A stretch of DNA of 63,903 nt from a virus (taxonomy: Duplodnaviria; Caudoviricetes), in IMG/VR virus record IMGVR_UViG_3300042898_001199, positions 1 to 63,903 of that record; one strand, 5' to 3'. Position numbers and translations under genes: made by a program. Below, piece after piece: positions 1 through 18,127 of this stretch. A model generated the notes under the pieces. It did no database searches, was not told the origin of the DNA, and saw nothing but the letters and a program-made list of their open reading frames with translations. The first letter of the stretch is position 1; every line of letters begins with the position of its first letter.

Positions 1-8
1 AAAGAACA

Positions 9-206
9 ATGGCTGATATAAGTAAGTGCATAGGGACAGATTGTCCCCACAAAGAAAAGTGCTACCGATTTACAGCACCGGCTAACGAGTACGCCCAAGC
101 CTATTTTACGGAGCCGCCAATCAAGGAGGACGGAACCTGCGATATGTTCTGGGGAAAGACACAGACAGACATCCTCTCCCAACTCAAGGAGATTGTCAAG
201 GGATAG
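9..206 (+). CDS. small Cys-containing phage hypothetical protein
   Basis: 65-aa ORF with C-x4-C-x5-C; in frame with the ATG at 63898 if the window ends are joined. Confidence 0.75.
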   Translation: MADISKCIGTDCPHKEKCYRFTAPANEYAQAYFTEPPIKEDGTCDMFWGKTQTDILSQLKEIVKG

Positions 207-1100
207 CGTGACAAATCCTCACGCCTTCAAAAATTGTCAAGATATCGTTTTACCTTTTGGATTTTTTTGTCCTGCAAGTCAATGACTTTTCGTGACAAAT
301 ACATAGGTAAAAATGTTACCACACTATAGTATGGTATAACAGTCATTAACCCCAATTTCACAGGCTAATGCATAGTATATCATACTTTAATGTGGTTTAG
401 GTAAAATGGCAAACCTCTCCCTTATAAGGAGCATAGCCGCCTAATTTTATCCCTCTAATGACATCTTATGAGTTAGATGCTATAAACCACACCTGTCCGA
501 TATAAGCGGACAACCAACAAAAGACAGTGTTCTCATTTACTGGCAAATGTTTGATTGTGGAAAATAATCCCCAGAACAGGCGATATAGTGGAAAATAATC
601 AATAAAGCATACACCTTTATCAATCATAGTGGAAATATCAGTTTCAAACTGACAAGGGTGATATAAAACGCCATTACTAAAAAATCACAAGAGTATTGGC
701 GAAATATAGAATGCCAAACTCCGTAACAAAAACACGCCAAACTCGGAAGTTCTCCGAATTACCTGCATGAATTTTTCCACAATCCCCATGCGCCATTGTC
801 AAGTTTATTACGCAAAAAACTAGACACAAGCACCTAGGGACAACTCGTCCCCACAGCAACACACAAATCTCACCTACACCCGAAAGGACCATTAGGTCGA
901 CACCAACAAGATGGTAGATTATATCTTAACGCTGTACGAAAATTATATATTAAAGCAGTCGGTTACAAAACGTAGCCAACTGGTGACAAAAACCCGTGAT
1001 AAACTGTCACGGGTTGGTTAGCACCACTACCCAACTGTAGACACATAGTCGACACTCCATAAAAATTTTTTTTTAGAGGGGTCGATTTCGACCACCTTTA
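206..1100. repeat. array of many different short inverted repeats (operator-like sites)
   Basis: e.g. GCGTGA-N7-TCACGC 206-224, AAGTCA-A-TGACTT 276-288, TGTCCG-N7-CGGACA 494-512, TCAGTTT-C-AAACTGA 638-652, GGGAC-N5-GTCCC 837-851, AACCCGTGA-N7-TCACGGGTT 991-1015, GGTCGA-TT-TCGACC 1080-1093; no credible ORF. Confidence 0.7.
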
Positions 1101-1140
1101 GCATTATGCAAGATCTGCATTTTACGATACCACCCCCCTC

Positions 1141-1329
1141 TTATCCTATAACCACATTAATCCGGTAGCCTAAGTGGGACAGCATCGAACACATATCGCC
1201 AAAGGACACGTCAATCGATCCTCTCTCAACACGACTCAGCCACGCACCACTCTTCCCCACTACACCAGCCAAAGAACATAAGCTCATACCATGTAACTTA
1301 CGCAAACGTCTCAAATCATCCGTCAACAT
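1141..1329 (-). CDS. XRE/Cro-family helix-turn-helix protein
   Basis: LRRLRKLHGMSLCSLAGVVGKSGAWLSRVERG matches the HTH_3 pattern. Confidence 0.8.
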   Translation of the reverse strand: MLTDDLRRLRKLHGMSLCSLAGVVGKSGAWLSRVERGSIDVSFGDMCSMLSHLGYRINVVIG

Positions 1330-1330
1330 A

Positions 1331-2122
1331 TTAAAATAATTTTAATTGACCCATGCTCTTAACGCCATCCATAATAGGTTGAACATTAGGGTCTATAATA
1401 TCAGCAAACTCTATCTCGCAAAAAGTACCGCAGTCAGGCACAATAGGTGGATCATGTCTCCCCTCACTCTCACTCATCTCATCCAAGAAACGCCCCTTAA
1501 TACACGAATGACCAACCTCCCTCTCCAAAACAGCCATACGCTCATACTGATCCGGGAAGTGCTTCCGTACATGATTCCAATAACCCTTTCCCCCCTTGAC
1601 ACAACCAATACAGTTATTGTTATGGAAACCGAGAGTATACATCTCAGGCAAGCGTATACCATTCTTCAATAAAAGCTCGGCACACATACTCTTAGTCATC
1701 CTCTGGTCAATCAAAGGATAAACAGGCCTGCTGTCAGGATACTGTTGAGCAAAGCGTATAGCTCGATTAACCTCCTTCTGGCTGAACTCAAAGCCAAATA
1801 CTTGCCCCTCATATTCAAAATCTTTCTCGATAGCCTTACGAACATCCTTCTTTAACTCCTTGGTACACCTAGCACCAGCAGCACCATTAACATAACCAGT
1901 ACGCTTGATCACATCAAACTGATCTACATACTTACCGCTACGCCTACGCTCAACAGGGACACCAATCCAACGCTCACAGTCAACAATAAAACGCTCGTTA
2001 TCCTTATGGGCAGAGTCAATCTCCATGTAAAACAAACGGACATTCTCTTTACCATACATCTCTACAGCTATGCGACACGCTACAGCCGAAGTAACACCAC
2101 AACTAAACCATCCAATGTACAT
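1331..2122 (-). CDS. PAPS-reductase-like (PP-loop) protein
   Basis: N-terminal WFSCGVTS PP-loop-like motif, RCTKELK, and C-terminal NNCIGCVKG Cys cluster typical of phage PAPS-reductase family. Confidence 0.75.
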   Translation of the reverse strand: MYIGWFSCGVTSAVACRIAVEMYGKENVRLFYMEIDSAHKDNERFIVDCERWIGVPVERRRSGKYVDQFDVIKRTGYVNGAAGARCTKELKKDVRKAIEKDFEYEGQVFGFEFSQKEVNRAIRFAQQYPDSRPVYPLIDQRMTKSMCAELLLKNGIRLPEMYTLGFHNNNCIGCVKGGKGYWNHVRKHFPDQYERMAVLEREVGHSCIKGRFLDEMSESEGRHDPPIVPDCGTFCEIEFADIIDPNVQPIMDGVKSMGQLKLF

Positions 2123-2152
2123 AATTTTTAAATTTTTTTTTAATGCGTTTTA

Positions 2153-2160
2153 CAAATATA
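2153..2160 (-). promoter_or_regulatory. Bacteroidota-type -7 promoter element (TATATTTG)
   Basis: matches TAnnTTTG, 30 nt upstream of the 2122 start. Confidence 0.55.
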
Positions 2161-3029
2161 CAACAAATTTACGTCTCAGTTAACAAAACGCGGTAAAAGT
2201 TTTACTCAGAAGTAAATAAATAACCGCAAAAAGGGGATCAGGGGATAACCAAATCCAAAACAAAAAGGGGGCAAGAAGTCAAATGTGAGGGGTTTCCAAT
2301 CCCATGGCCCACCCCCCTCAAGTAAATAAAATCGGGATTTGCGACCCCACCCCGGCCTAGCAGGAACCATGACCCAAGCCAAGACCTTGGTTATCAGCAT
2401 GTTGCATCCACGTTTCGCCCCTAACTTTAAGGATTGCCCAGCCAACACATTATATATGTAGCGATACATGATGTCGGCATCATACATCACACGTCAGCTC
2501 TAGCACACAGCATAGCAACCCAACAACAACAAGCCATGCAATACTATACAGCTCACACACAACGCATGCCTATTGCCCTGCAATACTACGGCATATCATC
2601 AGTCAACAAAGCCTTGACCTCAACCCCTTAGTGTATCATGTACACTTACTACGTTTTCCACATAAGCCTGTTCATAACTATAGTGTGCCGTCAACACAAT
2701 AAACCATGGCATACCTGAGTTGCGCCAAACCCTTGACCTTAGTGTACATTACACACCAACCTTAGTGTACTTCATACACATTAGCCTATTCGTTACGGCA
2801 GAAACCCTCCGCATGTGACCATTTATAAGTCCTGCCAAACCTACATTCCTTTCCTATAGACCTTCTGCATCCCTTGTCTTTGCTATGTTCTTAAAATAGT
2901 ACGAATTATTATCATTTTTTTATCATTGGTTATCAGTTAGTTACAATTTATTTTCATTTATTTTCATATGCCACACAATATAATCTAGCAATCTGCATTA
3001 TCCCTTCAAGAGCAACGGCTCGGAGCAAA

Positions 3030-3230
3030 GATTCCCTTACTGATTACTACCCGTACTGATGAGATATCAGTTGTACACAGGAGTGTTATTCGAATAGAGG
3101 TAGTAGAGGGTAGAGAGTTTAGCTAGATAGAAGTAGTACTCAACTATACTTAGCCGTCAAAGGTAACTAACTGAGCAAGGGTGTTACACGGAGAGAGTAC
3201 TAGTCACACAGGTCGGACTTAAAAGACCAA
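3030..3230 (+). ncRNA. structured leader RNA upstream of the early operon
   Basis: nested stems TACTACC/GGTAGTA, ACTGAT/ATCAGT, TAGTACTC/GAGTACTA, CCGT..GTAAC/GTTAC-ACGG, GGTC/GACC; no ORF. Confidence 0.5.
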
Positions 3231-3231
3231 A

Positions 3232-3243
3232 GTTCTTTGACAT
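3232..3243 (+). promoter_or_regulatory. boxA-like antitermination site
   Basis: GTTCTTTGACAT resembles rRNA-operon boxA (GYTCTTTRAMA) and follows a GGTC/GACC hairpin. Confidence 0.55.
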
Positions 3244-3256
3244 ATCGGTAACACAC

Positions 3257-3318
3257 TGAAACGCTTGGAGAGGTCTGCTCGTGAGAGAGGCTTTGGGGTT
3301 CGACTCCCCACGTTTCGC
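3257..3318 (+). ncRNA. tRNA-like element without an anticodon arm
   Basis: 7-bp acceptor stem TGAAACG/CGTTTCG, T-arm TGGGG-TTCGACT-CCCCA, stemless D-loop CTTGGAG, and a GTGA-tetraloop helix in place of the anticodon arm. Confidence 0.75.
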
Positions 3319-3339
3319 TAACCAATTAATACACACACT

Positions 3340-3699
3340 ATGTACAAAATTGCATTTCATCTAGCACGAGGAGTTCACTTCATGCATTGGCAAATTAAGG
3401 GAGATAACGGAGAGGTAATCTACGTTAACCCTAACGAGAGTGACATTGTTATTCACGGATGTAAACTGAAGAACCAAAGGAGTACCTCACTCAAGATTCA
3501 CCAAGGCGGTGACAAGTTCAGATGTGCTTGGGTTCAATTCGATTCATTCGAGATTGTGCCACTATCTAACTACACGTCAAAGACTCAAGTTCGTTTCAAT
3601 CCGAGGGTTAAACCTACGTGGGTTGTAGGAGGTGTTGACGAGCAGGACAACAGAGAGTTCAACGTCCTTTACACTAACCGTTCACAGCTATTTGCATAA
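3340..3699 (+). CDS. early hypothetical protein
   Basis: 119-aa ORF with TAACCAA..ACACAC leader. Confidence 0.8.
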   Translation: MYKIAFHLARGVHFMHWQIKGDNGEVIYVNPNESDIVIHGCKLKNQRSTSLKIHQGGDKFRCAWVQFDSFEIVPLSNYTSKTQVRFNPRVKPTWVVGGVDEQDNREFNVLYTNRSQLFA

Positions 3700-3752
3700 G
3701 GTTTACTGAAGAGAGTTTAATACTCGAAACGGGGGTTATCCCCGTCTAAACC
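3700..3752 (+). ncRNA. type I hammerhead ribozyme (HH1)
   Basis: stem I GGTTTA/TAAACC, core CTGAAGA, stem II GAGT/ACTC, GAAA, stem III CGGGG/CCCCG, GTC triplet; predicted cut after C3746. Confidence 0.93.
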
Positions 3753-3771
3753 AATTTAAATCAATAATGCC

Positions 3772-3879
3772 ATGGAGACTAAAATCTTAAGAATCGAGGG
3801 GAACTTTGAAGTAATCGGGTTCTTCATCAACGGAGTATTAGTACGCACTACGAAGAGACGTGTATACTCTTGGAACTAA
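3772..3879 (+). CDS. 35-aa early protein (not in ORF track)
   Basis: METKILRIEGNFEVIGFFINGVLVRTTKRRVYSWN, downstream of the HH1 leader. Confidence 0.6.
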   Translation: METKILRIEGNFEVIGFFINGVLVRTTKRRVYSWN

Positions 3880-3906
3880 AACATTAATCATCTAATACCA
3901 ATTGCC

Positions 3907-4062
3907 ATGAACTCAAATCAGAAAACCATCAACAGCCTGTCTTTACTAGGTATCGCAGGAGGACTTCTTCTAGTGAGCTTGAGCATGACCTTCTTTGGAG
4001 GAGTGTTCATCACACTATTCACCTTATCATTGACAGCTAACCTGCTGTTGCCACAACACTAA
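3907..4062 (+). CDS. 51-aa early membrane protein (not in ORF track)
   Basis: two hydrophobic segments; leader ATACCAATTGCC-ATG. Confidence 0.6.
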   Translation: MNSNQKTINSLSLLGIAGGLLLVSLSMTFFGGVFITLFTLSLTANLLLPQH

Positions 4063-4082
4063 CCAATAAATACATAGAAAAC

Positions 4083-4412
4083 ATGAACGTATTACAATTG
4101 AACATTGGGCTGAATAACAACCCTTACAGCCCTGAGGAAGTTACTCGACTACTTACTACATACTTTGACGGATTAGTGGGAGTCAGAGAACACATGGGCG
4201 AGTGGGAGGGTGAGCCTGAGCCAACGATGGTTGTTAAGATTGTTGTTGACATGGAGTATACCGATGCTTACATCATGGTCTCAACAATGGCTAGCAACTT
4301 CACTCAAGACTGCATCGCAATGAAGTTCAACGATAAAGGAACTTTGGTTTATAATGTCGATTACGAGGGGAACCCATTCGACTTCAGCGATGAATATTTC
4401 ATCGAGTTCTAG
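4083..4412 (+). CDS. acidic early hypothetical protein
   Basis: 109-aa ORF; its TAG stop overlaps the first base of HH2. Confidence 0.8.
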   Translation: MNVLQLNIGLNNNPYSPEEVTRLLTTYFDGLVGVREHMGEWEGEPEPTMVVKIVVDMEYTDAYIMVSTMASNFTQDCIAMKFNDKGTLVYNVDYEGNPFDFSDEYFIEF

Positions 4413-4471
4413 GTTAACTGATGAGTCCTGAGTGGACGAAACGTGAGGCTCTCCAGCCTCATGTCTTAACC
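4412..4471 (+). ncRNA. type I hammerhead ribozyme (HH2)
   Basis: stem I GGTTAA/TTAACC, core CTGATGA, stem II GTCC/GGAC, GAAA, stem III CGTGAGGCT/AGCCTCATG, GTC triplet; predicted cut after C4465. Confidence 0.95.
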
Positions 4472-4485
4472 AAATAATTATTGCC

Positions 4486-4722
4486 ATGAATACTGAAGAA
4501 CAACTGAAAAAAAGGCTTGCCCTTATTGAGGATGACTTGCGAGTAATTCGAGAGTTCATCTACATCCAAGGTTTGACATCGGAGTTCGAGAAATCGACCC
4601 CGTATTCTGACGAGGCTTGGGTTCACCTGAACAACATCGACATTGCATGTGACCTAAGCGATGACGAGTGCCTGACTTGGAAAACATTTACAAACTTTAA
4701 CGAACAAACTAGACCGCTATGA
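4486..4722 (+). CDS. early hypothetical protein
   Basis: ORF immediately after HH2. Confidence 0.75.
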   Translation: MNTEEQLKKRLALIEDDLRVIREFIYIQGLTSEFEKSTPYSDEAWVHLNNIDIACDLSDDECLTWKTFTNFNEQTRPL

Positions 4723-5000
4723 GCAGAATCACCAAACTTCAGAAGCAGATTGCCGATGCACACATCAGAGCAAATCGAGAGGGTTCATTCACTAACTTGA
4801 AAGTAAATTCAAAAGAGGAATTTCACCAAGCCTTGGAGAGAGGTGAGACCTACGAAATAGTCTACAAAGAAATTGTATACAGATACGCCTCGATGACTAG
4901 CCTGATAATGGCTAATGTACTAGACCACGAGAGCAAGGCTTACACACAGGCTGTGTACAAAGGATTTAAAAACGTGCTTAATTCAATCGATGTAAAATGA
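4719..5000 (+). CDS. early hypothetical protein
   Basis: ATGA-coupled ORF. Confidence 0.75.
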   Translation: MSRITKLQKQIADAHIRANREGSFTNLKVNSKEEFHQALERGETYEIVYKEIVYRYASMTSLIMANVLDHESKAYTQAVYKGFKNVLNSIDVK

Positions 5001-5209
5001 AACCGAGTTACCACAACATGAAGCTACCCATGATTAAGGGAGCAATAACCTTCCCCTGTAGGGCTAAGGTAGAACTACGCATTCAGGTATACGGAAGAGT
5101 GGTAGTGAGTGAGGTGAACTTCAGCAATGAGGTTCACGTTATGAACTACACGAAACTGATGTACCGCAAGATGATGGACGTACTGACAATTGAAAAACTT
5201 AATAACTAA
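4997..5209 (+). CDS. early hypothetical protein
   Basis: ATGA-coupled ORF. Confidence 0.7.
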   Translation: MKPSYHNMKLPMIKGAITFPCRAKVELRIQVYGRVVVSEVNFSNEVHVMNYTKLMYRKMMDVLTIEKLNN

Positions 5210-5222
5210 TAAATACACACAC

Positions 5223-5429
5223 ATGAACATTGACACACTAATCGCATACGAGTCAGGGGAACTGAACGATGCCGATACTATAACCTTCTTTGCAGACCTT
5301 GTTAAAACCAAGATGGCTTGGAGTCTTCAGGGAAGTTACGGACGCATGGCTTCAGCCATGATTGATGCAGGGTTTATCTCTCCTGAGGGAGAGGTGACCG
5401 AGTTAGCAGAAGAAACCTTTAATAATTAA
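5223..5429 (+). CDS. early hypothetical protein
   Basis: start moved to MNIDTL after the ACACACAC leader; AWSLQGSYGR motif. Confidence 0.75.
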   Translation: MNIDTLIAYESGELNDADTITFFADLVKTKMAWSLQGSYGRMASAMIDAGFISPEGEVTELAEETFNN

Positions 5430-5433
5430 TACA

Positions 5434-5661
5434 ATGGAAAAACTATTCAAACAATTAGTGGGGAAAAAAATCGCCAGTCTCCGTTACATGACCAAGGGCG
5501 AGTGCGAGGCACTAGGGTTCCACAAGAGTTCGATAATCATTCGACTAGACGATGGCACATGGCTCATCCCAATTGCAGATGATGAGATGAATGACGGAGG
5601 TTCTCTGTACACGATAGGCAAAGGGGAGGAAAATATAATACCAACAACGTACACCACATGA
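5434..5661 (+). CDS. early hypothetical protein
   Basis: ORF in operon, DDEMNDGG motif. Confidence 0.75.
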   Translation: MEKLFKQLVGKKIASLRYMTKGECEALGFHKSSIIIRLDDGTWLIPIADDEMNDGGSLYTIGKGEENIIPTTYTT

Positions 5662-5822
5662 AGACTAAAAGATATATCCTGACATTGCTCAATGAAACGG
5701 GAGGAGTAATTGACGCGAGAATATTTTACGCACTCAGTAGAGTGGATGCACTCGAGCAGGCAAAACTGTTCATGAATTTTCAAAATCTTAAACTTAAATT
5801 TAAACTAAACCTTTTTAAATAA
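5658..5822 (+). CDS. 54-aa early protein (not in ORF track)
   Basis: ATGA-coupled, fills the gap between neighbours. Confidence 0.55.
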   Translation: MKTKRYILTLLNETGGVIDARIFYALSRVDALEQAKLFMNFQNLKLKFKLNLFK

Positions 5823-5830
5823 TAAACACC

Positions 5831-6316
5831 ATGAAATACACAACACAAGAAGGCTTCAATTGGGAGATTGTAAGCAAGGAAAGAGCAATTGCATTACTTC
5901 AGGCAGGTGCAGAGGTCTACAAGGTATACGATGACGAGAGTGAATCTCTTATTGACTTGGAAGATGAATTATGGGACGTTTCCGGACTCATGTTCTACGC
6001 CATCGATGGAAACACTGCAAGGATTTTTCAGAAACAAGCACCGAGGAAATGGGCGAGGGTTGACACTGCGACTGGCAAAGGAATGAACGAGGGTTTCTGC
6101 GTAGGTGAGGGTGACGCTTACTTCGAGGAAGAGGCTGACCTGATTAAGTACCTGAGAGGGCTGAATGAAGAGGGGAACAAGGAGTTGTCTGATGACTTCA
6201 TTCTTGCCGAGGCTTACGCTTTGGAAGAGTATTACTACACAGAGTGGGACGTTGAAGACAGCGACTATTACTACGAGGAACAAGCGGACGGAACACTAAT
6301 AGAAATTAACCTTTAA
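5831..6316 (+). CDS. highly acidic early protein
   Basis: 161 aa, D/E- and aromatic-rich C-terminus. Confidence 0.8.
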   Translation: MKYTTQEGFNWEIVSKERAIALLQAGAEVYKVYDDESESLIDLEDELWDVSGLMFYAIDGNTARIFQKQAPRKWARVDTATGKGMNEGFCVGEGDAYFEEEADLIKYLRGLNEEGNKELSDDFILAEAYALEEYYYTEWDVEDSDYYYEEQADGTLIEINL

Positions 6317-6328
6317 AAAATAAACACC

Positions 6329-6577
6329 ATGAAAAAAGTAAATTCAGTAACAGCATCACGCTTCTTAGCTTGGTACTTCTCAGATTCAGATATGGTAGAA
6401 TCATTCGGCCAGCGTGCAGTAAAAATGCTACAGGATGAGGGGTTCGTGAATATCTCAGCAAGACAATTATTTGAAGATTGCGGATACATTCCTTCATTCA
6501 TCTGCGAACATGGGGACGTGGATTGGGATGATGCACGAGAGTACTCTCCTGAAGAAATAGAATTTATCAATGACTAA
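6329..6577 (+). CDS. early hypothetical protein
   Basis: ORF with AAATAAACACC-ATG leader, also present before 5831. Confidence 0.75.
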   Translation: MKKVNSVTASRFLAWYFSDSDMVESFGQRAVKMLQDEGFVNISARQLFEDCGYIPSFICEHGDVDWDDAREYSPEEIEFIND

Positions 6578-6595
6578 CCAATAAAACCAAACGCC

Positions 6596-6973
6596 ATGAA
6601 CACACAACAAGTAACACAGGAAGACATCTTCAAAGTAATCAACACACTTGCTATTCAGGTGCGAAATGACCTGATGGAGAGTGAGGTATTCGAAGATTCA
6701 GATACACTGGAAACGATAAAGACCATTGTCTTTCTAGCTCAACTACACAACTCTGATTGGAGCTACCCTTTTACCGAGGGAGATACTTACTATACCATCG
6801 AACATGATACAATTGTCGAGTCGGTGTGGGACGAGGAGAGTAAGGAGTTGTACCTGAGCGACAGCAATAAACTTTACAACCACTCAGACCAGCAATACTT
6901 CAGCAGTCTAGATGAAGCAGTACACTACTTCAAGAGTAAAGCTAAAACAACCCCTAAAATCTCATTGCTATGA
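6596..6973 (+). CDS. early hypothetical protein
   Basis: ORF with TAACCAA leader. Confidence 0.75.
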   Translation: MNTQQVTQEDIFKVINTLAIQVRNDLMESEVFEDSDTLETIKTIVFLAQLHNSDWSYPFTEGDTYYTIEHDTIVESVWDEESKELYLSDSNKLYNHSDQQYFSSLDEAVHYFKSKAKTTPKISLL

Positions 6974-7197
6974 ACGTAATAACCATTAAGAAACGCCCGA
7001 TGCAACAACACCTCGGAGGAAGTCAGGACATTGTCTTCTACACACGGAACAAGGCTCTCTCTCGCTTCTTCGAAATGACAGACGAGTTAGGCTACGAGGT
7101 GGAGGTAACCTACAAGAACAATCTTGTCACATACGAGGCAGGAGGGCGAGGCCATGATCATAGAATTGAACTTGAACTAACAAACGTACTAGTATGA
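6970..7197 (+). CDS. early hypothetical protein
   Basis: ATGA-coupled ORF. Confidence 0.7.
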   Translation: MNVITIKKRPMQQHLGGSQDIVFYTRNKALSRFFEMTDELGYEVEVTYKNNLVTYEAGGRGHDHRIELELTNVLV

Positions 7198-7373
7198 AAG
7201 AAACAACATTCTTCTTCAACGAGGTTGGAGAGACCTGCACCATCGAGGTGCATCTGAACCGCAAGCTAGACTACAGGAAGACCTTTAGCAAGGTGACATC
7301 ATTCTCTGAGGCAGTTGCCAAGTATGAGCAGTGGAAGGCAGACCAAGAAACATTTAAATCCGTAATGATATGA
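7194..7373 (+). CDS. 59-aa early protein (not in ORF track)
   Basis: ATGA overlaps at both ends. Confidence 0.65.
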   Translation: MKETTFFFNEVGETCTIEVHLNRKLDYRKTFSKVTSFSEAVAKYEQWKADQETFKSVMI

Positions 7374-7660
7374 ACGAGCAAGAATTTCTGGACTTCATGT
7401 ACAAAGAGTACATCGAGGTAATCGCAACGACTCAGCAGGTCTGTCCCATAACTTATGAACTATTGGACTACAAAACTTGTGTAGTGGTGGATGCTTATGA
7501 TGGTGATACTCTGAAGGATACGCAGGCACTCTCGCCTAACGCTATTGCAGAGGATAGCTTGAGGATAATCATAACCGACTTTGCTATTATGAGAATACGC
7601 CCAGTCTTCCTATCTTTGAACCCACTATTAAAGGACACAATCAAATCACTAAACAATTAA
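7370..7660 (+). CDS. early hypothetical protein
   Basis: ATGA-coupled ORF. Confidence 0.7.
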   Translation: MNEQEFLDFMYKEYIEVIATTQQVCPITYELLDYKTCVVVDAYDGDTLKDTQALSPNAIAEDSLRIIITDFAIMRIRPVFLSLNPLLKDTIKSLNN

Positions 7661-7664
7661 TCTA

Positions 7665-7823
7665 ATGGAACGAGACGAGAAAATCATCATCGGATGCGTA
7701 GCTGTGCTTATTGCCACGATATACTTCAGCATCCTGTTTAACATGAAGGCCATGGCCATAGTAAGCATGCTTGTTCTAGTCGCTGCCTTCCTAGTCGCAC
7801 AACTTATTGAATCAATTAAATAA
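7665..7823 (+). CDS. 52-aa membrane protein (not in ORF track)
   Basis: MERDEKIIIGCVAVLIATIYF..., two hydrophobic segments. Confidence 0.6.
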   Translation: MERDEKIIIGCVAVLIATIYFSILFNMKAMAIVSMLVLVAAFLVAQLIESIK

Positions 7824-7834
7824 ACCAAACACCC

Positions 7835-8239
7835 ATGAAAAAACAAATAGAAACATTAATCAGTCTAGCTCGCATGGTAGCAGACCTTCACTACAATTAC
7901 AATATCAAAGATGAGGTTGTAAACCACACGCACAACATCCGAGTAATTCAGGCTAACGAGAGAGATAATGAATTTATCGTGGTGGTATTCACTCGTAATA
8001 GACTTGATTTTAGTGTTCGTTTCTCTAACTACAGCGGAGTTAACTTGGAGTTCCCCTTCTCAGCAAATATTGAAGAGACCCTCGACCCTCTTATTGAAGA
8101 GGTGAGTGAGTCTCTGAACGAATGGCAGGCAAATAGTCAAGAGGATATAGTTCAAATGAAATTGGATGCCGTAGAGAAGAGAAGACAGACTTTGATAAAA
8201 TTAACAAACGAACTAAACGAATTGGAGGGCAAACTATGA
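7835..8239 (+). CDS. early hypothetical protein
   Basis: 134-aa ORF with TAAACCAAACACCC-ATG leader. Confidence 0.75.
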   Translation: MKKQIETLISLARMVADLHYNYNIKDEVVNHTHNIRVIQANERDNEFIVVVFTRNRLDFSVRFSNYSGVNLEFPFSANIEETLDPLIEEVSESLNEWQANSQEDIVQMKLDAVEKRRQTLIKLTNELNELEGKL

Positions 8240-8514
8240 AACACTTTGTAAAAGACATTGCAGACCAAGTAATGCTAGATGTATGTCCATCAGGAAGATT
8301 ACTAGCCTTCAACGAAGTCCATGTTGTGGATTGTGGGAACAAGAATATCAAGGTATACCTTCAAGGTGTAATTAACATGGATGAGGAGAACTTGATAATC
8401 CACACCGCAACTTACACGGATGATATGGAAGCAGATGAAGACTTGCCTGAGGACTGGAAAGAGTTCGATGACAGCGAGATTATTTATCTAGAAAAGCATT
8501 TACAATACTCGTAG
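8236..8514 (+). CDS. acidic early hypothetical protein
   Basis: last ORF before the terminator. Confidence 0.75.
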   Translation: MKHFVKDIADQVMLDVCPSGRLLAFNEVHVVDCGNKNIKVYLQGVINMDEENLIIHTATYTDDMEADEDLPEDWKEFDDSEIIYLEKHLQYS

Positions 8515-8534
8515 TTCATGGGTAAATTGGTTAG

Positions 8535-8570
8535 AAGAGAGGGGGTAGACTTTGTCTATTCCCTTTTTTT
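8535..8570 (+). terminator. intrinsic terminator ending the early operon
   Basis: GGGGGTAGAC-TTT-GTCTATTCCC followed by T7. Confidence 0.85.
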
Positions 8571-8761
8571 GTTTTCACTATCTTTGTAATCAATAGGTTA
8601 AACACTATCTCACTAATAAAAATACACGCTCACATGAATAAGCAAATATCACCCCGTAAAAACAACATGACTTACGCTGTAGTATACATGATGGTTGCTT
8701 TTAGAAAGCTCAGCAAAATCAACATCCAGAACGCATTTATCACAAAAAAAATTGGCCGTTT

Positions 8762-9085
8762 ATGATAGTAAGAGAAACCATTCAGGAGGGGACTTTAAAA
8801 CAAAATAAGAACCCATCAATAGAGATACCTAAGCATGTTTTAGACCACCTTATTTCATCTTGTAGGTCACACGCTGACGTATTAAACATGCACTATATAT
8901 GTAACAAGCAGAAACTCCCGTTAAGATTCATGAACGACCTTATCATCAGGAAGAAGCCTCTAAAGAATAGAGAGAAGATAGATTTGATGCTCAAGGGCTT
9001 GATTGAATACTGCGAAGAGGTAGACGAATTACGGCTCAAAATACAAAAGATAATAGATGAAATCGGTACACAAGACAAGGGCTAA
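8762..9085 (+). CDS. hypothetical protein
   Basis: 107-aa ORF; TATCTTTG promoter-like element at 8579-8586. Confidence 0.7.
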   Translation: MIVRETIQEGTLKQNKNPSIEIPKHVLDHLISSCRSHADVLNMHYICNKQKLPLRFMNDLIIRKKPLKNREKIDLMLKGLIEYCEEVDELRLKIQKIIDEIGTQDKG

Positions 9086-9296
9086 GTGGCTAATTTATTT
9101 TGCCAATAGGAATATCAACCCGAAGAAAGCTTTGATGGTATTCCGTCCTGAATATGACAAGCCTGATATAAGTAGGATGATGTCACTTTTCTTCGGTACG
9201 CCTAAATTTACCGAGGCTGACATTGAAGACTGGAGAGCAATTAAGAAATGTATAGAACGAACTGAAGATAGAAACAATGGCAAACTTTTCTCGTAG
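9057..9296 (+). CDS. hypothetical protein
   Basis: overlapping ORF in operon. Confidence 0.65.
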   Translation: MKSVHKTRAKWLIYFANRNINPKKALMVFRPEYDKPDISRMMSLFFGTPKFTEADIEDWRAIKKCIERTEDRNNGKLFS

Positions 9297-9564
9297 TAAT
9301 AAGTACAGAAGTCGGGCTGAGAAGTACATGGAAATTGACAGCCTACATAAAAGGGTTGTTGCCATACTCACAAAGACTGGCCTTAGAAATGATCCCAAGG
9401 CTTACCTGACATTTGATCTGGCTCTCTATCCCATGGATATCGATCAGAGGAGGAAGATTCTAAAGAAGATATTCAGCCCTGATGGGAGAGAGATTAAGGA
9501 GGAGCATAAACAACAAATAGAATTGTTAGAAACTTTTTTCGATAGGAATTGTAAAAGTTTGTAA
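9277..9564 (+). CDS. hypothetical protein
   Basis: ORF in operon. Confidence 0.7.
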   Translation: MANFSRSNKYRSRAEKYMEIDSLHKRVVAILTKTGLRNDPKAYLTFDLALYPMDIDQRRKILKKIFSPDGREIKEEHKQQIELLETFFDRNCKSL

Positions 9565-9580
9565 TTCTTTTGTATATTTG
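9549..9580 (+). promoter_or_regulatory. Bacteroidota primary-sigma promoter
   Basis: TTG(9549)-N21-TATATTTG(9573-9580). Confidence 0.75.
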
Positions 9581-9606
9581 CATAAACCAATAAATAATAA
9601 ATAACT

Positions 9607-9786
9607 ATGGAAACACACGACTTATTCTTCTGTCGCTACTGCGATGAAGACTTACTAGACGAAAGAATCAAAACCGTGGCCGAAGACCAGAACATCGAAG
9701 AGGATGAGGCCAAGGACATCATTGACACCGAGGGGGAGATTGGATTATGCAGAGCATGTCAAAGCGAAGAGGATTCAGACTGGTAA
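9607..9786 (+). CDS. 59-aa acidic Zn-finger-like protein (not in ORF track)
   Basis: CRYC...CRAC pairs; first gene after the promoter. Confidence 0.7.
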   Translation: METHDLFFCRYCDEDLLDERIKTVAEDQNIEEDEAKDIIDTEGEIGLCRACQSEEDSDW

Positions 9787-9811
9787 ATATTAACAAGTAA
9801 ATTACACACAA

Positions 9812-10681
9812 ATGTCAAACATAACAATTTCACCAAAGACGGTAATGCCGTTCATCGAACCTCGCAGAGAGGAAATGATTAAGCTGATGGGAGGAGAAGA
9901 AGTTCTCATGAGAGAGATGTCTTTCGCCATCCAAGCTGCTAACAACAACCAAGTGTTGGCAAATTCTAACCCACAATCAATTGCAATGGCTGTGTACAAC
10001 TGTGCATTGACCAAGTTGTCTCTGAACCCTGTAATGAACCTAGCTTATCTAGTTCCTTTCAAGGGCAACGCGAAGCTAATGCCAGGATATCAGGGGATGA
10101 TTAAGCTTATCTCTGACACAGGGATTATCAAGTCGGTATCTTCGGCGGTAGTTTATCGAGGGGACGATTTTGACTTTGTTCAGGGGACTAGCCCGGAGAT
10201 TATACACAAGCCTAAGGGTGAGACCTTCAAGAACAGCGATGTCATAGCCGTGTACGCAATCTTCGTACTACACAATGACGAGAAACTGTTCGAGATTATG
10301 TGGAAGCCTCAGATTGATGCCATCAAGAACCGATCGGAGACAGGGCGTAAAGATGAAGGGCCGTGGTCTACAGACTACGGGGAGATGGCACGCAAGACGG
10401 TTGTCAAGAGAGGTTGGAAGTCTATACCGAAATCATCTTTCGCACTAGACAAGATTGAGAAGGTTAACACGGCTATCAGCATCGACAACGAGGAGTACAA
10501 GACAGTCGAGTATGTTAAGATGAGCGAGGAGCAAATCGAGAGACTGCTTGAGAAGACAACCAACGTGGTAGAACTTGAGGCTGCACTATCTGACGAGTCG
10601 GTGATGATCGATCCAGAGCAGAAGAAAGAAATCATAGAGAAAGCTAAAAACAAAAATAAAAAAGGAGGTGACGATGAGTAA
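9812..10681 (+). CDS. recT: RecT-family ssDNA annealing recombinase
   Basis: LSLNP..LAYLVPF..GYQGMI and PWSTDYGEMARKTVVKR motifs. Confidence 0.9.
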   Translation: MSNITISPKTVMPFIEPRREEMIKLMGGEEVLMREMSFAIQAANNNQVLANSNPQSIAMAVYNCALTKLSLNPVMNLAYLVPFKGNAKLMPGYQGMIKLISDTGIIKSVSSAVVYRGDDFDFVQGTSPEIIHKPKGETFKNSDVIAVYAIFVLHNDEKLFEIMWKPQIDAIKNRSETGRKDEGPWSTDYGEMARKTVVKRGWKSIPKSSFALDKIEKVNTAISIDNEEYKTVEYVKMSEEQIERLLEKTTNVVELEAALSDESVMIDPEQKKEIIEKAKNKNKKGGDDE

Positions 10682-11357
10682 CTTGTTAAATGAAATCTTA
10701 AAGGAACAGGCCATGGCCGCAGATCAAAGGTCACAGGCATGGTTCAACGCTCGTGTGGGTAAGTTTACCTCATCAGAGATATACAAGCTTCTTACTAACC
10801 CTCAATCAAAAGAGGCCCGTGAGAAGGGAGAGATGTCTGAGACGGCTAAGACATACGTCATGTCTAAGGTTGCCGAGGAGATGGCCGGGATGGAGCAGAC
10901 TACTAACTCGGCAGCTACAGACTGGGGCTTGGACCACGAGGCAGAGGCTTGCAACCTATACGCAGAGATGATGGAGTCTCATGTTGACTCTACCGGATTC
11001 ATACCGTACGGAGACCACGCAGGGGGTTCTCCTGACGGTATCTGTTCACGCTTCGGAGTGATTGAGATTAAATGTCCTTACAACTTTGAGAATCACATTC
11101 AGAATCTACTCATAAAGGACGAGGCTGAGTTGCTTAAGGAGAGAAAGGCTTACTGGTGGCAACTTCAAATGAACATGCTGGTCGCAGGCAAGGAGGAGGG
11201 GATGTTTATATCTTACGATCCTAGAATGGATGGCAAGAGTAAATTACAAATAATTCCCGTACATTTGCAAAGCAACACAAAAGAAGTCATAGACACTGTC
11301 CTTGATAAAGCAGTAGCTTACAAGCAAATGTTAATTGAGATGATAAAAAACAGATAA
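10668..11357 (+). CDS. YqaJ/lambda-exonuclease-like recombination exonuclease
   Basis: QRSQAWFNARVGKFTSS, GGSPDG, EIKCP, YWWQLQ motifs; adjacent to recT. Confidence 0.9.
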   Translation: MTMSNLLNEILKEQAMAADQRSQAWFNARVGKFTSSEIYKLLTNPQSKEAREKGEMSETAKTYVMSKVAEEMAGMEQTTNSAATDWGLDHEAEACNLYAEMMESHVDSTGFIPYGDHAGGSPDGICSRFGVIEIKCPYNFENHIQNLLIKDEAELLKERKAYWWQLQMNMLVAGKEEGMFISYDPRMDGKSKLQIIPVHLQSNTKEVIDTVLDKAVAYKQMLIEMIKNR

Positions 11358-11359
11358 GT

Positions 11360-11686
11360 ATGTTAACAGACAAAAAGAAACACCAAATCATTGCCTCTGT
11401 GCTACACGCAAACTGTTTTGTAATACTATCTGACGAGATAGGGCCACCATACTGGGAAAAGGAAATCAAGATGATTGCCAAGAGGTATGTGGAAGCTATC
11501 GAGAAGAAGTACAAATTGCTAGCATCTGTTCTGTTCCAAATTGAAGGGGGGGATATGTATCAAAAGGCTCAGTCCGACTGTGAAGAACTTGTTGCCCTAA
11601 TTAGTAAGCTAGACTGGCACAAACACCACAAAGTAATTGAATACATTAAAACCCTTGAAGAAGATGAACAAGATTCAGAAAACTAA
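11360..11686 (+). CDS. hypothetical protein
   Basis: 108-aa ORF in operon. Confidence 0.7.
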   Translation: MLTDKKKHQIIASVLHANCFVILSDEIGPPYWEKEIKMIAKRYVEAIEKKYKLLASVLFQIEGGDMYQKAQSDCEELVALISKLDWHKHHKVIEYIKTLEEDEQDSEN

Positions 11687-12044
11687 TCTATACTTTATTG
11701 CTTTCATTGTCGTTCTTATTTTATCTGGAGTAATCCTGACTAAAATATACACTGGCGAGAAAGTAATGGTTAGATCTTACAACGATTCAATCTCAGCAAA
11801 CAATCTTAAAATAAGAGAGGCGCAAAAGATTGTAGATTCATTAAAGAAAGAGTTAGCTAAACAAGATGTAGAGTACGTCTACATAAAACAAAAAGAAAGT
11901 GAAACAATTAAAACCTACAAAAATGAAAAATCTATTATTGATCACGCTCCTATTAGCGAGCAGCTTGAGCTTTTCACAAAAAACCTCAAAAGGCTTGACA
12001 GCCTCAACAAGCAAGGATACTTTGATTTCAATCAACAAGAATGA
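11664..12044 (+). CDS. membrane-anchored coiled-coil protein (i-spanin-like)
   Basis: N-terminal TM LYFIAFIVVLILSGVIL followed by coiled coil. Confidence 0.55.
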   Translation: MNKIQKTNLYFIAFIVVLILSGVILTKIYTGEKVMVRSYNDSISANNLKIREAQKIVDSLKKELAKQDVEYVYIKQKESETIKTYKNEKSIIDHAPISEQLELFTKNLKRLDSLNKQGYFDFNQQE

Positions 12045-12372
12045 TGTTGACTTGTTAAACAAAGTAATTCTGTCAGAGAACTTCTACAGGTCTTTGTACG
12101 ATTTGAATGACGAAAAGATTAATTTGTTTGAGAGTAAAATAAAAACTCTTCAAGGTGTTGTGCTGTACGATTCAATTGTTATGAAAAACTTACAAGACAA
12201 TGTATACCTTTTAGAGTACGACTTATCTGTAGCTAAAGAAAGTGCTGACCGTTCTTACAGCGAAAGATCAAAAGCTGTTATAAAAGCATACGAGTGGAAA
12301 CAACGTGCAATTTTAGGTATTCCAATCTCTTTAGCCGGAGGATTTTTAATCGCAACTCTAATCCAACACTAA
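11923..12372 (+). CDS. secreted/membrane coiled-coil protein (spanin partner-like)
   Basis: signal peptide MKNLLLITLLLASSLSFSQ, C-terminal hydrophobic segment; overlaps the previous gene by ~120 nt. Confidence 0.55.
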   Translation: MKNLLLITLLLASSLSFSQKTSKGLTASTSKDTLISINKNDVDLLNKVILSENFYRSLYDLNDEKINLFESKIKTLQGVVLYDSIVMKNLQDNVYLLEYDLSVAKESADRSYSERSKAVIKAYEWKQRAILGIPISLAGGFLIATLIQH

Positions 12373-12373
12373 T

Positions 12374-12649
12374 ATGAAACCACTATTTGATCGTATAAAG
12401 TTTAAGCCACACATACGCAAGGCTGTAACGTCCGACATTATTATAACAGAGACTAATGAGAAAGTGTTTAAGGACGAGGGATACGTCACAGACATTGGAG
12501 AGGAGGTTGAGTTTGTAAAAGTTGGAGACAGGATTAAATTCCTAGAGAAAAATGTAACATGGGTTTCTGAAAACGATGTGACCTTTGGTCTTATCTCTGA
12601 GGATCATGTGTTAGCTATAATTGATGATGAGAACGTTCAGGAAGGTTAA
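12374..12649 (+). CDS. groES: GroES-like co-chaperonin
   Basis: MKPLFDRI..., VKVGDRI, LISEDHVLAII fit the Cpn10 pattern. Confidence 0.8.
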   Translation: MKPLFDRIKFKPHIRKAVTSDIIITETNEKVFKDEGYVTDIGEEVEFVKVGDRIKFLEKNVTWVSENDVTFGLISEDHVLAIIDDENVQEG

Positions 12650-12944
12650 GTACTGGAACGGCATCTTAATCGAATCTGGGGCCTGCTTTAGGTGGGTTAA
12701 TGACAATCAAGTTGTCCACTTCGATGGTGCTAAGGAAGGCTTCTTTCACTCTTGGGGGTTCTCAAGCGGAGAAACTGTCGGCATAGTTGAATCTCTCGAG
12801 GGGGAGATTCATCTTGTCGATCCTCCGTTCATTAGATTTACACACACAGATAGCACTACAGAATCTTTAAACGAGGCTCTAGAATTTATTAATGATGAGG
12901 AACAGAGACAGAGAGTAATAGATGTTATATTTAAAATGAAGTGA
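12621..12944 (+). CDS. hypothetical protein
   Basis: GFFHSWG..TVGIVE..GEIHLVDP..IRF motif. Confidence 0.7.
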   Translation: MMMRTFRKVKYWNGILIESGACFRWVNDNQVVHFDGAKEGFFHSWGFSSGETVGIVESLEGEIHLVDPPFIRFTHTDSTTESLNEALEFINDEEQRQRVIDVIFKMK

Positions 12945-13264
12945 TGAAGGTAAATGTAAAACCATTGTCTATAAACCAAGCGTTTCAGGGCAGAAGATTT
13001 AAATCTCCGGAATATAAGGCATACGAAAAAGAATGTCTTCTTAATTTACGACCGTTTAAGTTTCCACAGGGACAAGTATCTATAACTTTGATCGTGGGGT
13101 ACTCAAATAAGGCAAACGATATAGATAACAGTATTAAACCTATCCTAGATATACTACAGAAGAAATATACCTTTAACGATAAAGATGTATATGAGCTGCA
13201 TGTGTATAAGGTAATTGTAAAAAAGGGAGAAGAGTTCTGGCAATTTGATGTCAGGCCACTATAA
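12941..13264 (+). CDS. rusA: RusA-like Holliday junction resolvase
   Basis: PLSINQ, DIDNSIKPILDILQ, FNDKDV catalytic pattern. Confidence 0.85.
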   Translation: MMKVNVKPLSINQAFQGRRFKSPEYKAYEKECLLNLRPFKFPQGQVSITLIVGYSNKANDIDNSIKPILDILQKKYTFNDKDVYELHVYKVIVKKGEEFWQFDVRPL

Positions 13265-13294
13265 AGAAGTTTTAGTTAAACAAAAGAAGGGCGG

Positions 13295-13585
13295 TTACTT
13301 CAAACGTGGAGTGCCGCCTTTTCCATTTCTAGCGCGATTGCTAGACTGTTTCTCTTTTACTATCAACCCTTTCTTTGTGTGGCTCATGTCTTTACCGTCC
13401 TTGTTACCGTAAGTTCCAGATTTTTTATTCTCTTTATTCAGCTCTGAACGATACTTACGTCTCTCGGGAGTAGAGTGATATTCTTTGTTATACTCATCCT
13501 TCTTAGCCTTAGCCTTTGGGTTAGACTGAAAGTATTTAGCACTCTCTGATTTGCCTTTTTTAGTACCTGCTAGTGAATTTCTCAT
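13295..13585 (-). CDS. basic HNH-like protein
   Basis: DGKDMSH...SSNRARN motif. Confidence 0.6.
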   Translation of the reverse strand: MRNSLAGTKKGKSESAKYFQSNPKAKAKKDEYNKEYHSTPERRKYRSELNKENKKSGTYGNKDGKDMSHTKKGLIVKEKQSSNRARNGKGGTPRLK

Positions 13586-13609
13586 GTGACAAATATACAT
13601 ATAAAAATA

Positions 13610-14029
13610 TTACAAGCCTTCCGAGTAATATGCTATCTTAAGGATCCCGTAAAGCTTGAAGACATACTCCCACCTCTTATCCTTCCGCAAGAGTTTTTCT
13701 CTCGACAAGGTATGCCAATCTGTATGATACTCCGCGTTGACAAAAATGATATTGGAGGGATTGAGACGATAGGCAGGAAAAGCTCCTTTGCCTAGGATGT
13801 GAAAGCAGATTGATGGAGAGAACTCTAACTCTCTTCCGGTTACATAACAACGATGCTTACGACTCTCCCATAGATGTTTGAAGAGATCCATCTCTCCAGT
13901 AGGCTTATACTTTTTTTTGAAATCAGTTCTCTTGAGTCCTTTTGATTTAGGTTTTGCGTCTTCTCTATAGTTTTTACAGAATGCACGATTAAAATCCGTA
14001 CAAAAACACTCCTCGGCTTGGCACTTCAT
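13610..14029 (-). CDS. HNH-like nuclease (Ref/NinG-like)
   Basis: HRCYVTG..CFHILGKG..NII..YHTDWH. Confidence 0.6.
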   Translation of the reverse strand: MKCQAEECFCTDFNRAFCKNYREDAKPKSKGLKRTDFKKKYKPTGEMDLFKHLWESRKHRCYVTGRELEFSPSICFHILGKGAFPAYRLNPSNIIFVNAEYHTDWHTLSREKLLRKDKRWEYVFKLYGILKIAYYSEGL

Positions 14030-18095: not shown

Positions 18096-18127
18096 CAAAT
18101 TTACGTCATTTTGTTATTTGCTTTCAA
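18096..18127 (-). promoter_or_regulatory. promoter for the lysis cassette, probably leaderless
   Basis: TTG-N21-TAAATTTG ending 5 nt before ATG 18090. Confidence 0.6.

Follow-up and report, generated by a model that had tools for sequence, protein, structure and literature searches.

A segment complementary to early leaders and start codons at the 3' end of the early operon in a lineage of tailed phages

The end of the early operon

The window analysed here, a DNA stretch of 63,903 nucleotides from a virus of the Caudoviricetes (Duplodnaviria), comprises the IMG/VR record IMGVR_UViG_3300042898_001199 in full, for which a completeness of 96 % is estimated. Its early operon consists of some 20 small rightward genes (3340-8514) and is closed by a strong intrinsic terminator (8534-8570). 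Between the last stop codon and this terminator lies a segment of 21 nucleotides, termed here the anti-leader (GTTCATGGGTAAATTGGTTAG, Table 1), whose sequence is reverse-complementary to the consensus of early leaders and starts, TAACCAAT...ATGAA. In its reverse complement, the leader word is followed, after a short spacer, by CCATGAAC. The segment starts within the TAG stop codon of a 92-aa open reading frame (ORF), at the G, and extends to the foot of the terminator; it is located in the 3' untranslated region (3' UTR) of the early mRNA, whose intrinsic terminator it shares. A first-pass annotation of this DNA had reported the sequence between the last early stop and the terminator and had quoted similar leaders ahead of the genes at 3907, 6596 and 7835; the segment was found at that place, and the three leaders were present exactly as written. 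The likeness of the 21-mer to the leaders is gapped, and a search of the window with up to three mismatches returned the segment itself only. The observation is real, statistically solid and specific to one lineage of phages.

The terminator folded with a z-score of -3.6, and none of 200 shuffled sequences folded equally well. Its stem differs in sequence among relatives, yet stays paired by compensatory changes. On the minus strand the G.U pairs become A.C mismatches and weaken the hairpin; since the stem needs these G.U pairs, the terminator has to be seen as a signal of the plus-strand RNA. A purine tract beside the segment pairs with the U-tract of the terminator. A local hairpin of 8482-8493 with 8515-8527 was predicted as well, for which no obvious conservation was visible by eye in the sequences of the relatives. 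No match to Rfam passed the gathering score. At E<=10, two weak matches to the RAGATH-1-hammerhead and an L20-leader match over 8488-8577 were obtained; the latter amounts to a hairpin and a U-tract alone and was rejected. The 92-aa protein encoded upstream of the segment has no match in Pfam or PHROG, and homologues with 74-83 % identity are present on seven viral contigs. Downstream of the terminator follows a second rightward block with RecT and an exonuclease among its genes.

Table 1. Coordinates of the anti-leader, its surroundings and the RNA features of the early operon
Feature	Position	Strand	Remarks
tRNA-like element	3258..3318	+	acceptor-like stem (GAAACG/CGTTTC), a single hairpin and a T-arm (GGGGTTCGACTCCCC); its end is 2 nt upstream of the first leader
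First early leader, TAACCAATT...	3319..3339	+	precedes ATG 3340
Type-I hammerhead ribozyme	3698..3756	+	3' strand of stem I is the gene 3772 leader; own covariance model 77.2 bits
Type-I hammerhead ribozyme	4410..4475	+	3' strand of stem I is the gene 4486 leader; own covariance model 76.0 bits
Gene 6596 leader	6575..6595	+	no ribozyme upstream; overlaps the preceding stop codon
Gene 7835 leader and start	7821..7846	+	best predicted partner; pairing site 7823-7838
Last early gene	8236..8514	+	92 aa, stop TAG 8512-8514; from the ORF list
Anti-leader GTTCATGGGTAAATTGGTTAG	8514..8534	+	reverse complement of the early leader and start-codon consensus
ATTGGTTA core	8526..8533	+	exact complement of the TAACCAAT leader core; invariant in 9 type A genomes (alignments)
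Intrinsic terminator, early operon	8534..8570	+	17-pair hairpin followed by seven T
TATCTTTG	8579..8586	+	candidate Bacteroidota-type -7 box, next operon; block conserved in relatives

Complementarity to leaders and start codons

Start regions were defined as positions -35 to +12 around the ATG, and their duplex energies with nucleotides 8515-8536 were calculated with RNAduplex. The 19 early genes of the plus strand had a mean of -12.5 kcal/mol, the 72 other genes a mean of -7.7 kcal/mol (Mann-Whitney, p=4e-7); none of 500 dinucleotide shuffles of the query reached the early mean. The 22-mer at 8514 ranked first among 2,625 windows of the early transcript with a mean of -14.0 kcal/mol. The top four 22-mers all overlapped the segment, and the next best value was -11.8. 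A further 2,775 windows, taken from the 5' non-coding region and the next operon (2500-3298 and 8550-13298), reached -10.6 at best versus -14.0 for the segment. Six of the 19 early start regions had duplexes of -14 kcal/mol or better. The best partner was the start region of gene 7835 with -19.5 kcal/mol; the value for gene 6596 was -17.6. In the minimum free energy (MFE) fold of 7800-8571, nucleotides 8516-8532 were paired with the gene 7835 site. With a crude accessibility term, by which the opening energies of both partners were added, gene 7835 retained -11.6 kcal/mol (3 of 200 shuffles had a minimum as low as this), while -6.9 and -5.8 were obtained for genes 6596 and 3907; only gene 7835 was strongly favourable.

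Two other sites were tried as anti-leaders and rejected. GGTTAA at 8595, in the 5' UTR of the next operon, had a duplex mean of -5.5 kcal/mol, which equals the background, and varies among the relatives; ATTGGTTA on the plus strand at 2925-2932, upstream of the first leader, is absent from the relatives examined. At the end of the leftward block (990-1030, minus strand), a TAACCAACC word stands immediately 5' of a terminator-like hairpin, and a similar layout is present near position 214 of L006.

In many early genes, TAACCAAT or TAAACCAAT stands 12-25 nt upstream of the ATG. Two of these leaders are part of type-I hammerhead ribozymes with the layout CUGANGAG, stem II, CGAAAC, stem III, GUC and then the leader. 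An alignment of 16 hammerheads from the window and its relatives had a three-stem fold in which 8 of 16 pairs were kept through two-sided changes; stem I was almost invariant (GGUUWA with UWAACC), stems II and III varied freely. The covariance model made from this alignment recovered only the two hammerheads of Table 1 in positions 1-14000. The first leader follows a tRNA-like element with two-sided changes in 8 of 16 pairs (10 sequences). ARAGORN called no tRNA at 3258-3318; the element is probably a signal for RNase P/Z processing that frees the first leader. The first-pass annotation had spoken of leaders exposed by the ribozymes. The three that it quoted (3907, 6596 and 7835) have no ribozyme ahead, very short spacers and an overlap with the preceding stop codon; the leaders exposed by ribozymes or the tRNA-like element are those of 3340, 3772 and 4486. 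As leaders without a ribozyme exist, the word is constrained beyond its role in stem I. It probably has a function of its own as leader, and a 5'-end-dependent signal for translation or stability is probable. Hammerheads with this stem I word and core are present on at least 119 further viral contigs, thus the post-cleavage leader word is widespread. In the next operon, a TATATTTG box at 9573-9580 is followed after 2 nt by TAAACCAAT and then by ATG 9607, an arrangement conserved in the relatives. Transcription initiation may here (9573-9606) be a third route that places the leader at the 5' end of an mRNA.

Hammerheads of this kind have precedents. Clustered hammerheads in polycistronic RNAs of phages and prophages are already described by Perreault et al. 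2011 (PMC3088659); there, type-I hammerheads located between small phage genes presumably cleave long transcripts into mRNAs the length of a gene, and the class found here may already be among the alignments of that study. Among annotated phages, a query of hammerhead plus leader yielded core-level matches in the Agrobacterium phages OLIVR1-3 and otherwise chance matches. In these phages of 75.6 kb, the match is intergenic and unannotated and falls in the early region (about 3963-3991 in each of the records).

The abundance of hammerheads raises the question whether the segment is the degenerate 5' half of another one, with GGTTA(A/G) as former stem I strand, the purine tract as remnant of CUGANGA and the terminator hairpin as former stem II. 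Indeed, GGTTAAC-GAAGAG of the relatives is one T short of GGTTAACTGAAGAG in the real hammerheads of L003 and L006. This origin is nevertheless very improbable. The site has no CUGANGA...GAAA core and no Rfam hammerhead match, and the 10 matches of our own covariance model at E<=10 included none at 8514-8570. A real stem I has 6 bp, whereas here a complementarity of 9-13 nt is followed by a start codon; the purine tract is accounted for by its pairing with the U-tract. Among 29 operon ends of relatives (see below), no intact hammerhead was present at the homologous position.

Almost none of the 91 called genes is preceded by a Shine-Dalgarno sequence, and the upstream regions are A-rich. TANNTTTG, which we take to be the -7 promoter box of Bacteroidota, occurs 96 times in the window versus an expectation of 74 +/- 7, a count reached by none of 100 shuffles. 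The sole matches of the portal protein among cultured phages were podophages of Cellulophaga baltica (71-76 kb, 23 % identity). From these three properties of the sequence, the host is probably a member of the Flavobacteriia (Bacteroidota). A search of annotated phages with 7800-9300 for near relatives gave no match, and the primase/helicase as query against genome contigs recovered no relative. Two further observations concern the remaining genome. A 4,137-aa ORF on the minus strand (18114-30527) had DUF3293 (residues 1448-1517) as sole Pfam match above threshold and a sub-threshold match resembling S-AdoMet lyase. The non-coding region 2600-2790 between the divergent left and right gene blocks contains three CCCTTGACC..TTAGTGTAC-like repeats (families D16 and I12), which are candidate early promoters or regulator sites of a non-Bacteroidota type.

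Distribution and variation among relatives

Relatives were obtained via the 92-aa protein (7 contigs) and via RecT (50 loci, with the operon end read in 29), in total 34 genomes or loci were counted. Three types of operon end were distinguished. In type A, represented by the window and eight contigs (L013, L014, L016, L002/L015, L004/L028, L005, L007 and L008), the stop codon is followed by TTC(A/G)TGG..ATTGGTTA(A/G) and a terminator of the GGGGGTAGGC type. Type A' (L053 and L054) has a different upstream gene and a version shorter by 10 nt that keeps only TTCGTGGTTAG. Type B, with 23 loci, has another terminator, an unrelated preceding sequence and no anti-leader. The genomes of type A contain 2-7 TAACC leaders and 1-4 hammerheads, most of type B 0-3 leaders and no hammerhead. 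Other plus-strand copies of the anti-leader in 15 type B loci were in no case intergenic. A scan of viral contigs with the anti-leader pattern returned at least 117 stretches, mostly by chance; with a stricter pattern 13 stretches were obtained, seven of them on type A contigs already in hand. Rejected were the stretches on L066 and L163 (chance matches inside a 1,307-aa ORF), on L155 and L170 (a forward leader ahead of an 807-aa ORF) and on L104 and L121, which appear to be chance matches.

Within type A the complementarity is a constant property. In each of the eight relatives the segment was superior to 198-200 of 200 shuffles when paired with the early start regions of its own genome, while the 3' UTRs of nine type B relatives had no such signal (means reached by 32-194 of 200 shuffles). 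Two versions of the segment exist, differing at 6 of 24 columns and by insertions or deletions; both are complementary to leaders and share the invariant ATTGGTTA core. Among the seven genomes with the common version, 2 of 24 segment columns vary versus 44 of 92 synonymous (third codon) sites of the adjoining gene (p=3e-4); for all nine type A genomes the numbers are 6 of 24 and 72 of 92 (p=2e-6). The sole change within the start-codon complement is an exchange of A and G (CATG to CGTG), by which the plus-strand RNA retains its pairing as A-U or G.U.

This exchange bears on the strand. On the minus strand of the window, a leader-like sequence precedes an ATG and 11 codons up to a stop (MNYEYCKCFSR), a length given correctly by the first-pass annotation, which had named a translated antisense micro-ORF as the finding that would speak against an RNA function. 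Such a peptide gene is hardly credible and was rejected, since neither start codon nor frame is conserved. The ATG is present in three of nine type A genomes (window, L013 and L004/L028) and replaced by ACG in six, and the frame of L004, which keeps the ATG, has 2 codons. Minus-strand genes or a promoter are absent nearby, and the terminator hairpin is the weaker one on that strand. With the minus-strand ATG lost and the pairing of the plus-strand RNA kept by the same change, a function as plus-strand RNA is favoured.

A signal acting as DNA or as part of the terminator module was also considered, for instance a protein site with the TAACCAAT word in either orientation, an upstream element that adjusts termination, or an upstream promoter element of the following operon. 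The whole intergenic block of segment, terminator and promoter is conserved as a unit, and the segment is situated about 45-70 bp upstream of the TATCTTTG box. On the other hand, the remaining copies of the word in the early region have a single orientation and are tied to RNA features, namely hammerhead stem I and start codons. L017 lacks the segment but still has the promoter block, preceded there by a third, unrelated sequence, and the exchange of A and G suits wobble pairing in RNA. Overall, a DNA-level role is improbable.

The relatives also bear on the origin of the segment. Behind the same 92-aa gene, alternative cassettes are present (8515-8765 in the window, 4154-4700 in L003). Cassette A consists of anti-leader, terminator A, promoter block and a 43-aa gene, cassette B of genes for 107 and 49 aa and terminator B; in L003/L019 and L006/L024, the 92-aa gene is directly followed by two genes and then by the type B terminator. 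The segment may be a functionless inverted copy of a leader and start that originated from recombination at the boundary of an exchangeable terminator and promoter cassette and has been retained owing to its small size and young age and to the constrained signals on either side, stop codon and terminator. We consider this explanation possible rather than probable and nearly as likely as a function of the anti-leader. The locus is the point at which cassettes of type A and type B are swapped, and in type A' the shortened version stands behind a different gene. In L082, L103 and L162, a 21-nt string exactly reverse-complementary to the L004 version is a forward leader with ATGAAC ahead of an ORF of about 98 aa. 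A donor sequence therefore exists, and an inverted start region is a plausible source. Moreover, CATG is self-complementary, and the ATG half of the mimicry could instead derive from a TCATGG junction of the plus strand. The gene that follows in L003 and L006 begins at such a stop/start junction, as TAATCATGG, so part of the mimicry may be the remnant of a plus-strand start. What a functionless copy does not explain is the significant complementarity kept in both diverged versions and a variability far below that of synonymous sites. Nor does it explain the invariance of ATTGGTTA in nine genomes, when a similar GGTTAA located 60 nt downstream varies (GGTTAA, CATTAA, TGTTAA, GATTAA). Even as a relic, the segment would mark a recombination joint of alternative terminator cassettes in closely related phages.

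Possible function and known systems

Our preferred reading, held tentatively, is that of a plus-strand anti-leader which acts at the RNA level by folding back on, or annealing to, early start regions, in the window chiefly that of gene 7835. The early mRNAs of this phage without Shine-Dalgarno sequences would share the TAACCAAT leader, and self-cleavage of hammerheads, tRNA-like processing or short spacers would bring it to or near the 5' end. Once the polymerase has arrived at the end of the operon, the anti-leader, with the ATTGGTTA core and UUCAUGG, could anneal to leader and AUG. The predicted partner of choice is the gene 7835 start on the same RNA, by a fold-back over about 690 nt; other early start regions would be weaker partners in cis or trans. 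Initiation at a paired start is expected to be lowered. What the analysis shows is the sequence with its position and complementarity, its occurrence in nine genomes and a predicted fold-back; that pairing takes place in the cell and lowers translation is inferred. If functional, the arrangement would join two RNA-only devices in one phage operon, the processing that makes leaders and a 3'-terminal antisense to the leader, and would offer a compact timing of early expression in Bacteroidota. To our knowledge, Bacteroidota possess neither a Shine-Dalgarno-based initiation nor Hfq.

Several results weigh against this reading. The first-pass annotation had expected more pairing to start regions than in shuffled controls. 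The expectation was borne out by the RNAduplex energies, with no shuffle in 500 reaching the early mean and the segment as best match; after correction for accessibility, the mean over the early start regions was reached by 26 of 200 shuffles, and the general enrichment was lost. In a context of 400 nt, most bases of the segment are themselves predicted to be paired (unpaired probability 0.1-0.3), and a transcript contains one anti-leader versus at least six leaders. Covariation was sought in four tests, which have low power with only four sequence variants; neither the first leader, nor the last leader exposed by a hammerhead, nor the start region homologous to that of gene 7835 was seen to covary with the segment. 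The TAAACCAA word is absent from the leaders of the homologues of gene 7835, and the pairing in cis is not conserved. Their energies within their own genomes (-12.2 to -15.7 kcal/mol) are no better than across genomes, and the start regions of the window pair better with the common version of the relatives (-15.0) than with their own (-12.2). The conservation of the segment was not distinguishable from that of the remaining intergenic block of terminator and promoter (p=0.24 and 0.47). The negative covariation tests and a conservation no higher than in the neighbouring intergenic sequence also favour a functionless copy. As to the distribution, the anti-leader is absent from 23 of 29 relatives anchored by RecT and reduced to TTCGTGGTTAG in two more. 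L003/L019 and L006/L024 carry the same hammerheads and leaders without it, and among 119 other viral contigs listed with the same hammerhead stem I (1.07 Mb), only one weak same-strand combination of anti-leader and terminator was found. Since genomes with the same hammerheads and leaders lack it, the anti-leader belongs to one exchangeable cassette and is no universal component of the leader and ribozyme system.

The first-pass annotation had proposed a wider role, a processed and stable 3' fragment of about 55 nt that acts in trans on all TAACCAAT leaders and shuts off early translation as a feedback timer. Such a timer would work without protein: hammerheads, tRNA-like element and promoters would place the common leader UAACCAAU... 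at 5' ends, and the fragment, stabilised by the terminator, would mask leaders and AUG. The fragment may mask the leaders of related superinfecting phages too, as the stem I and leader word is shared by at least 119 other viral contigs. Known small RNAs (sRNAs) derived from 3' UTRs are built in this way, with an unstructured seed immediately ahead of an intrinsic terminator, and the complementarity is directed to a generic leader consensus, not to one target, with the six start regions at or below -14 kcal/mol as examples. The timer is nonetheless unlikely, both as an explanation of the segment and as a circuit. The enrichment over all start regions disappeared with the accessibility terms, two genomes with the same leader and hammerhead system lack the element, and two others have a truncated one. 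Sparse Logan contigs of relatives from two RNA runs, with small shares of 0.07 and 0.04, contained nothing usable on the ends, strand or abundance of such a fragment. The fragment would be produced in stoichiometric amounts with its targets unless it were far more stable, and Hfq is not at hand in Bacteroidota.

Our literature searches listed no paper on a phage circuit of this kind, in which an RNA derived from the 3' UTR is directed against the phage's own early genes. The two hammerheads of the window fit the picture drawn by Perreault et al. 2011 (PMC3088659), and the part of that paper available to us describes neither a common post-cleavage leader nor an antisense copy at the operon end. 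By analogy, the closest mechanisms appear to be the fbi-tac fold-back of hok, the pairing in the T7 gene 1.1/1.2 mRNA and the sRNAs derived from 3' UTRs.

CpxQ and SroC of enterobacteria are examples of the latter, with a seed just upstream of the parental terminator hairpin. As in these sRNAs, the putative seed stands beside the terminator of an mRNA and is complementary to translation initiation regions; unlike them, it is encoded by a phage, its putative targets are the early genes of the same phage, and it is known from its sequence alone. Covariation of seed and targets across relatives, expected for this class, was not seen in the four tests on four variants. For the T7 gene 1.1/1.2 mRNA, work attributed to Saito and Richardson (1981) reportedly found that the 3'-terminal sequence pairs with a ribosome-binding site unless RNase III removes it. 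In both cases a phage early mRNA has a 3'-terminal segment complementary to an upstream start region. The T7 arrangement depends on an RNase III site, whereas the segment precedes an intrinsic terminator in an operon with hammerheads and a tRNA-like element. In the hok/sok system, the 3' end of the hok mRNA (fbi) pairs with tac, and translation is thought to be locked in the full transcript. The likeness is that a 3'-end sequence is complementary to the translation-activating or start region of the same RNA. The fbi-tac pairing is conserved with covariation and relieved by trimming of the 3' end; here the partner in cis, the gene 7835 start, is not conserved, and the complement is a generic leader common to many genes. 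Since conserved pairing, a defining point, fails in the sequences compared, we do not place the segment in any of these classes. With a fold-back lock it has in common the predicted pairing within the same RNA, as seen in the MFE fold of 7800-8571.

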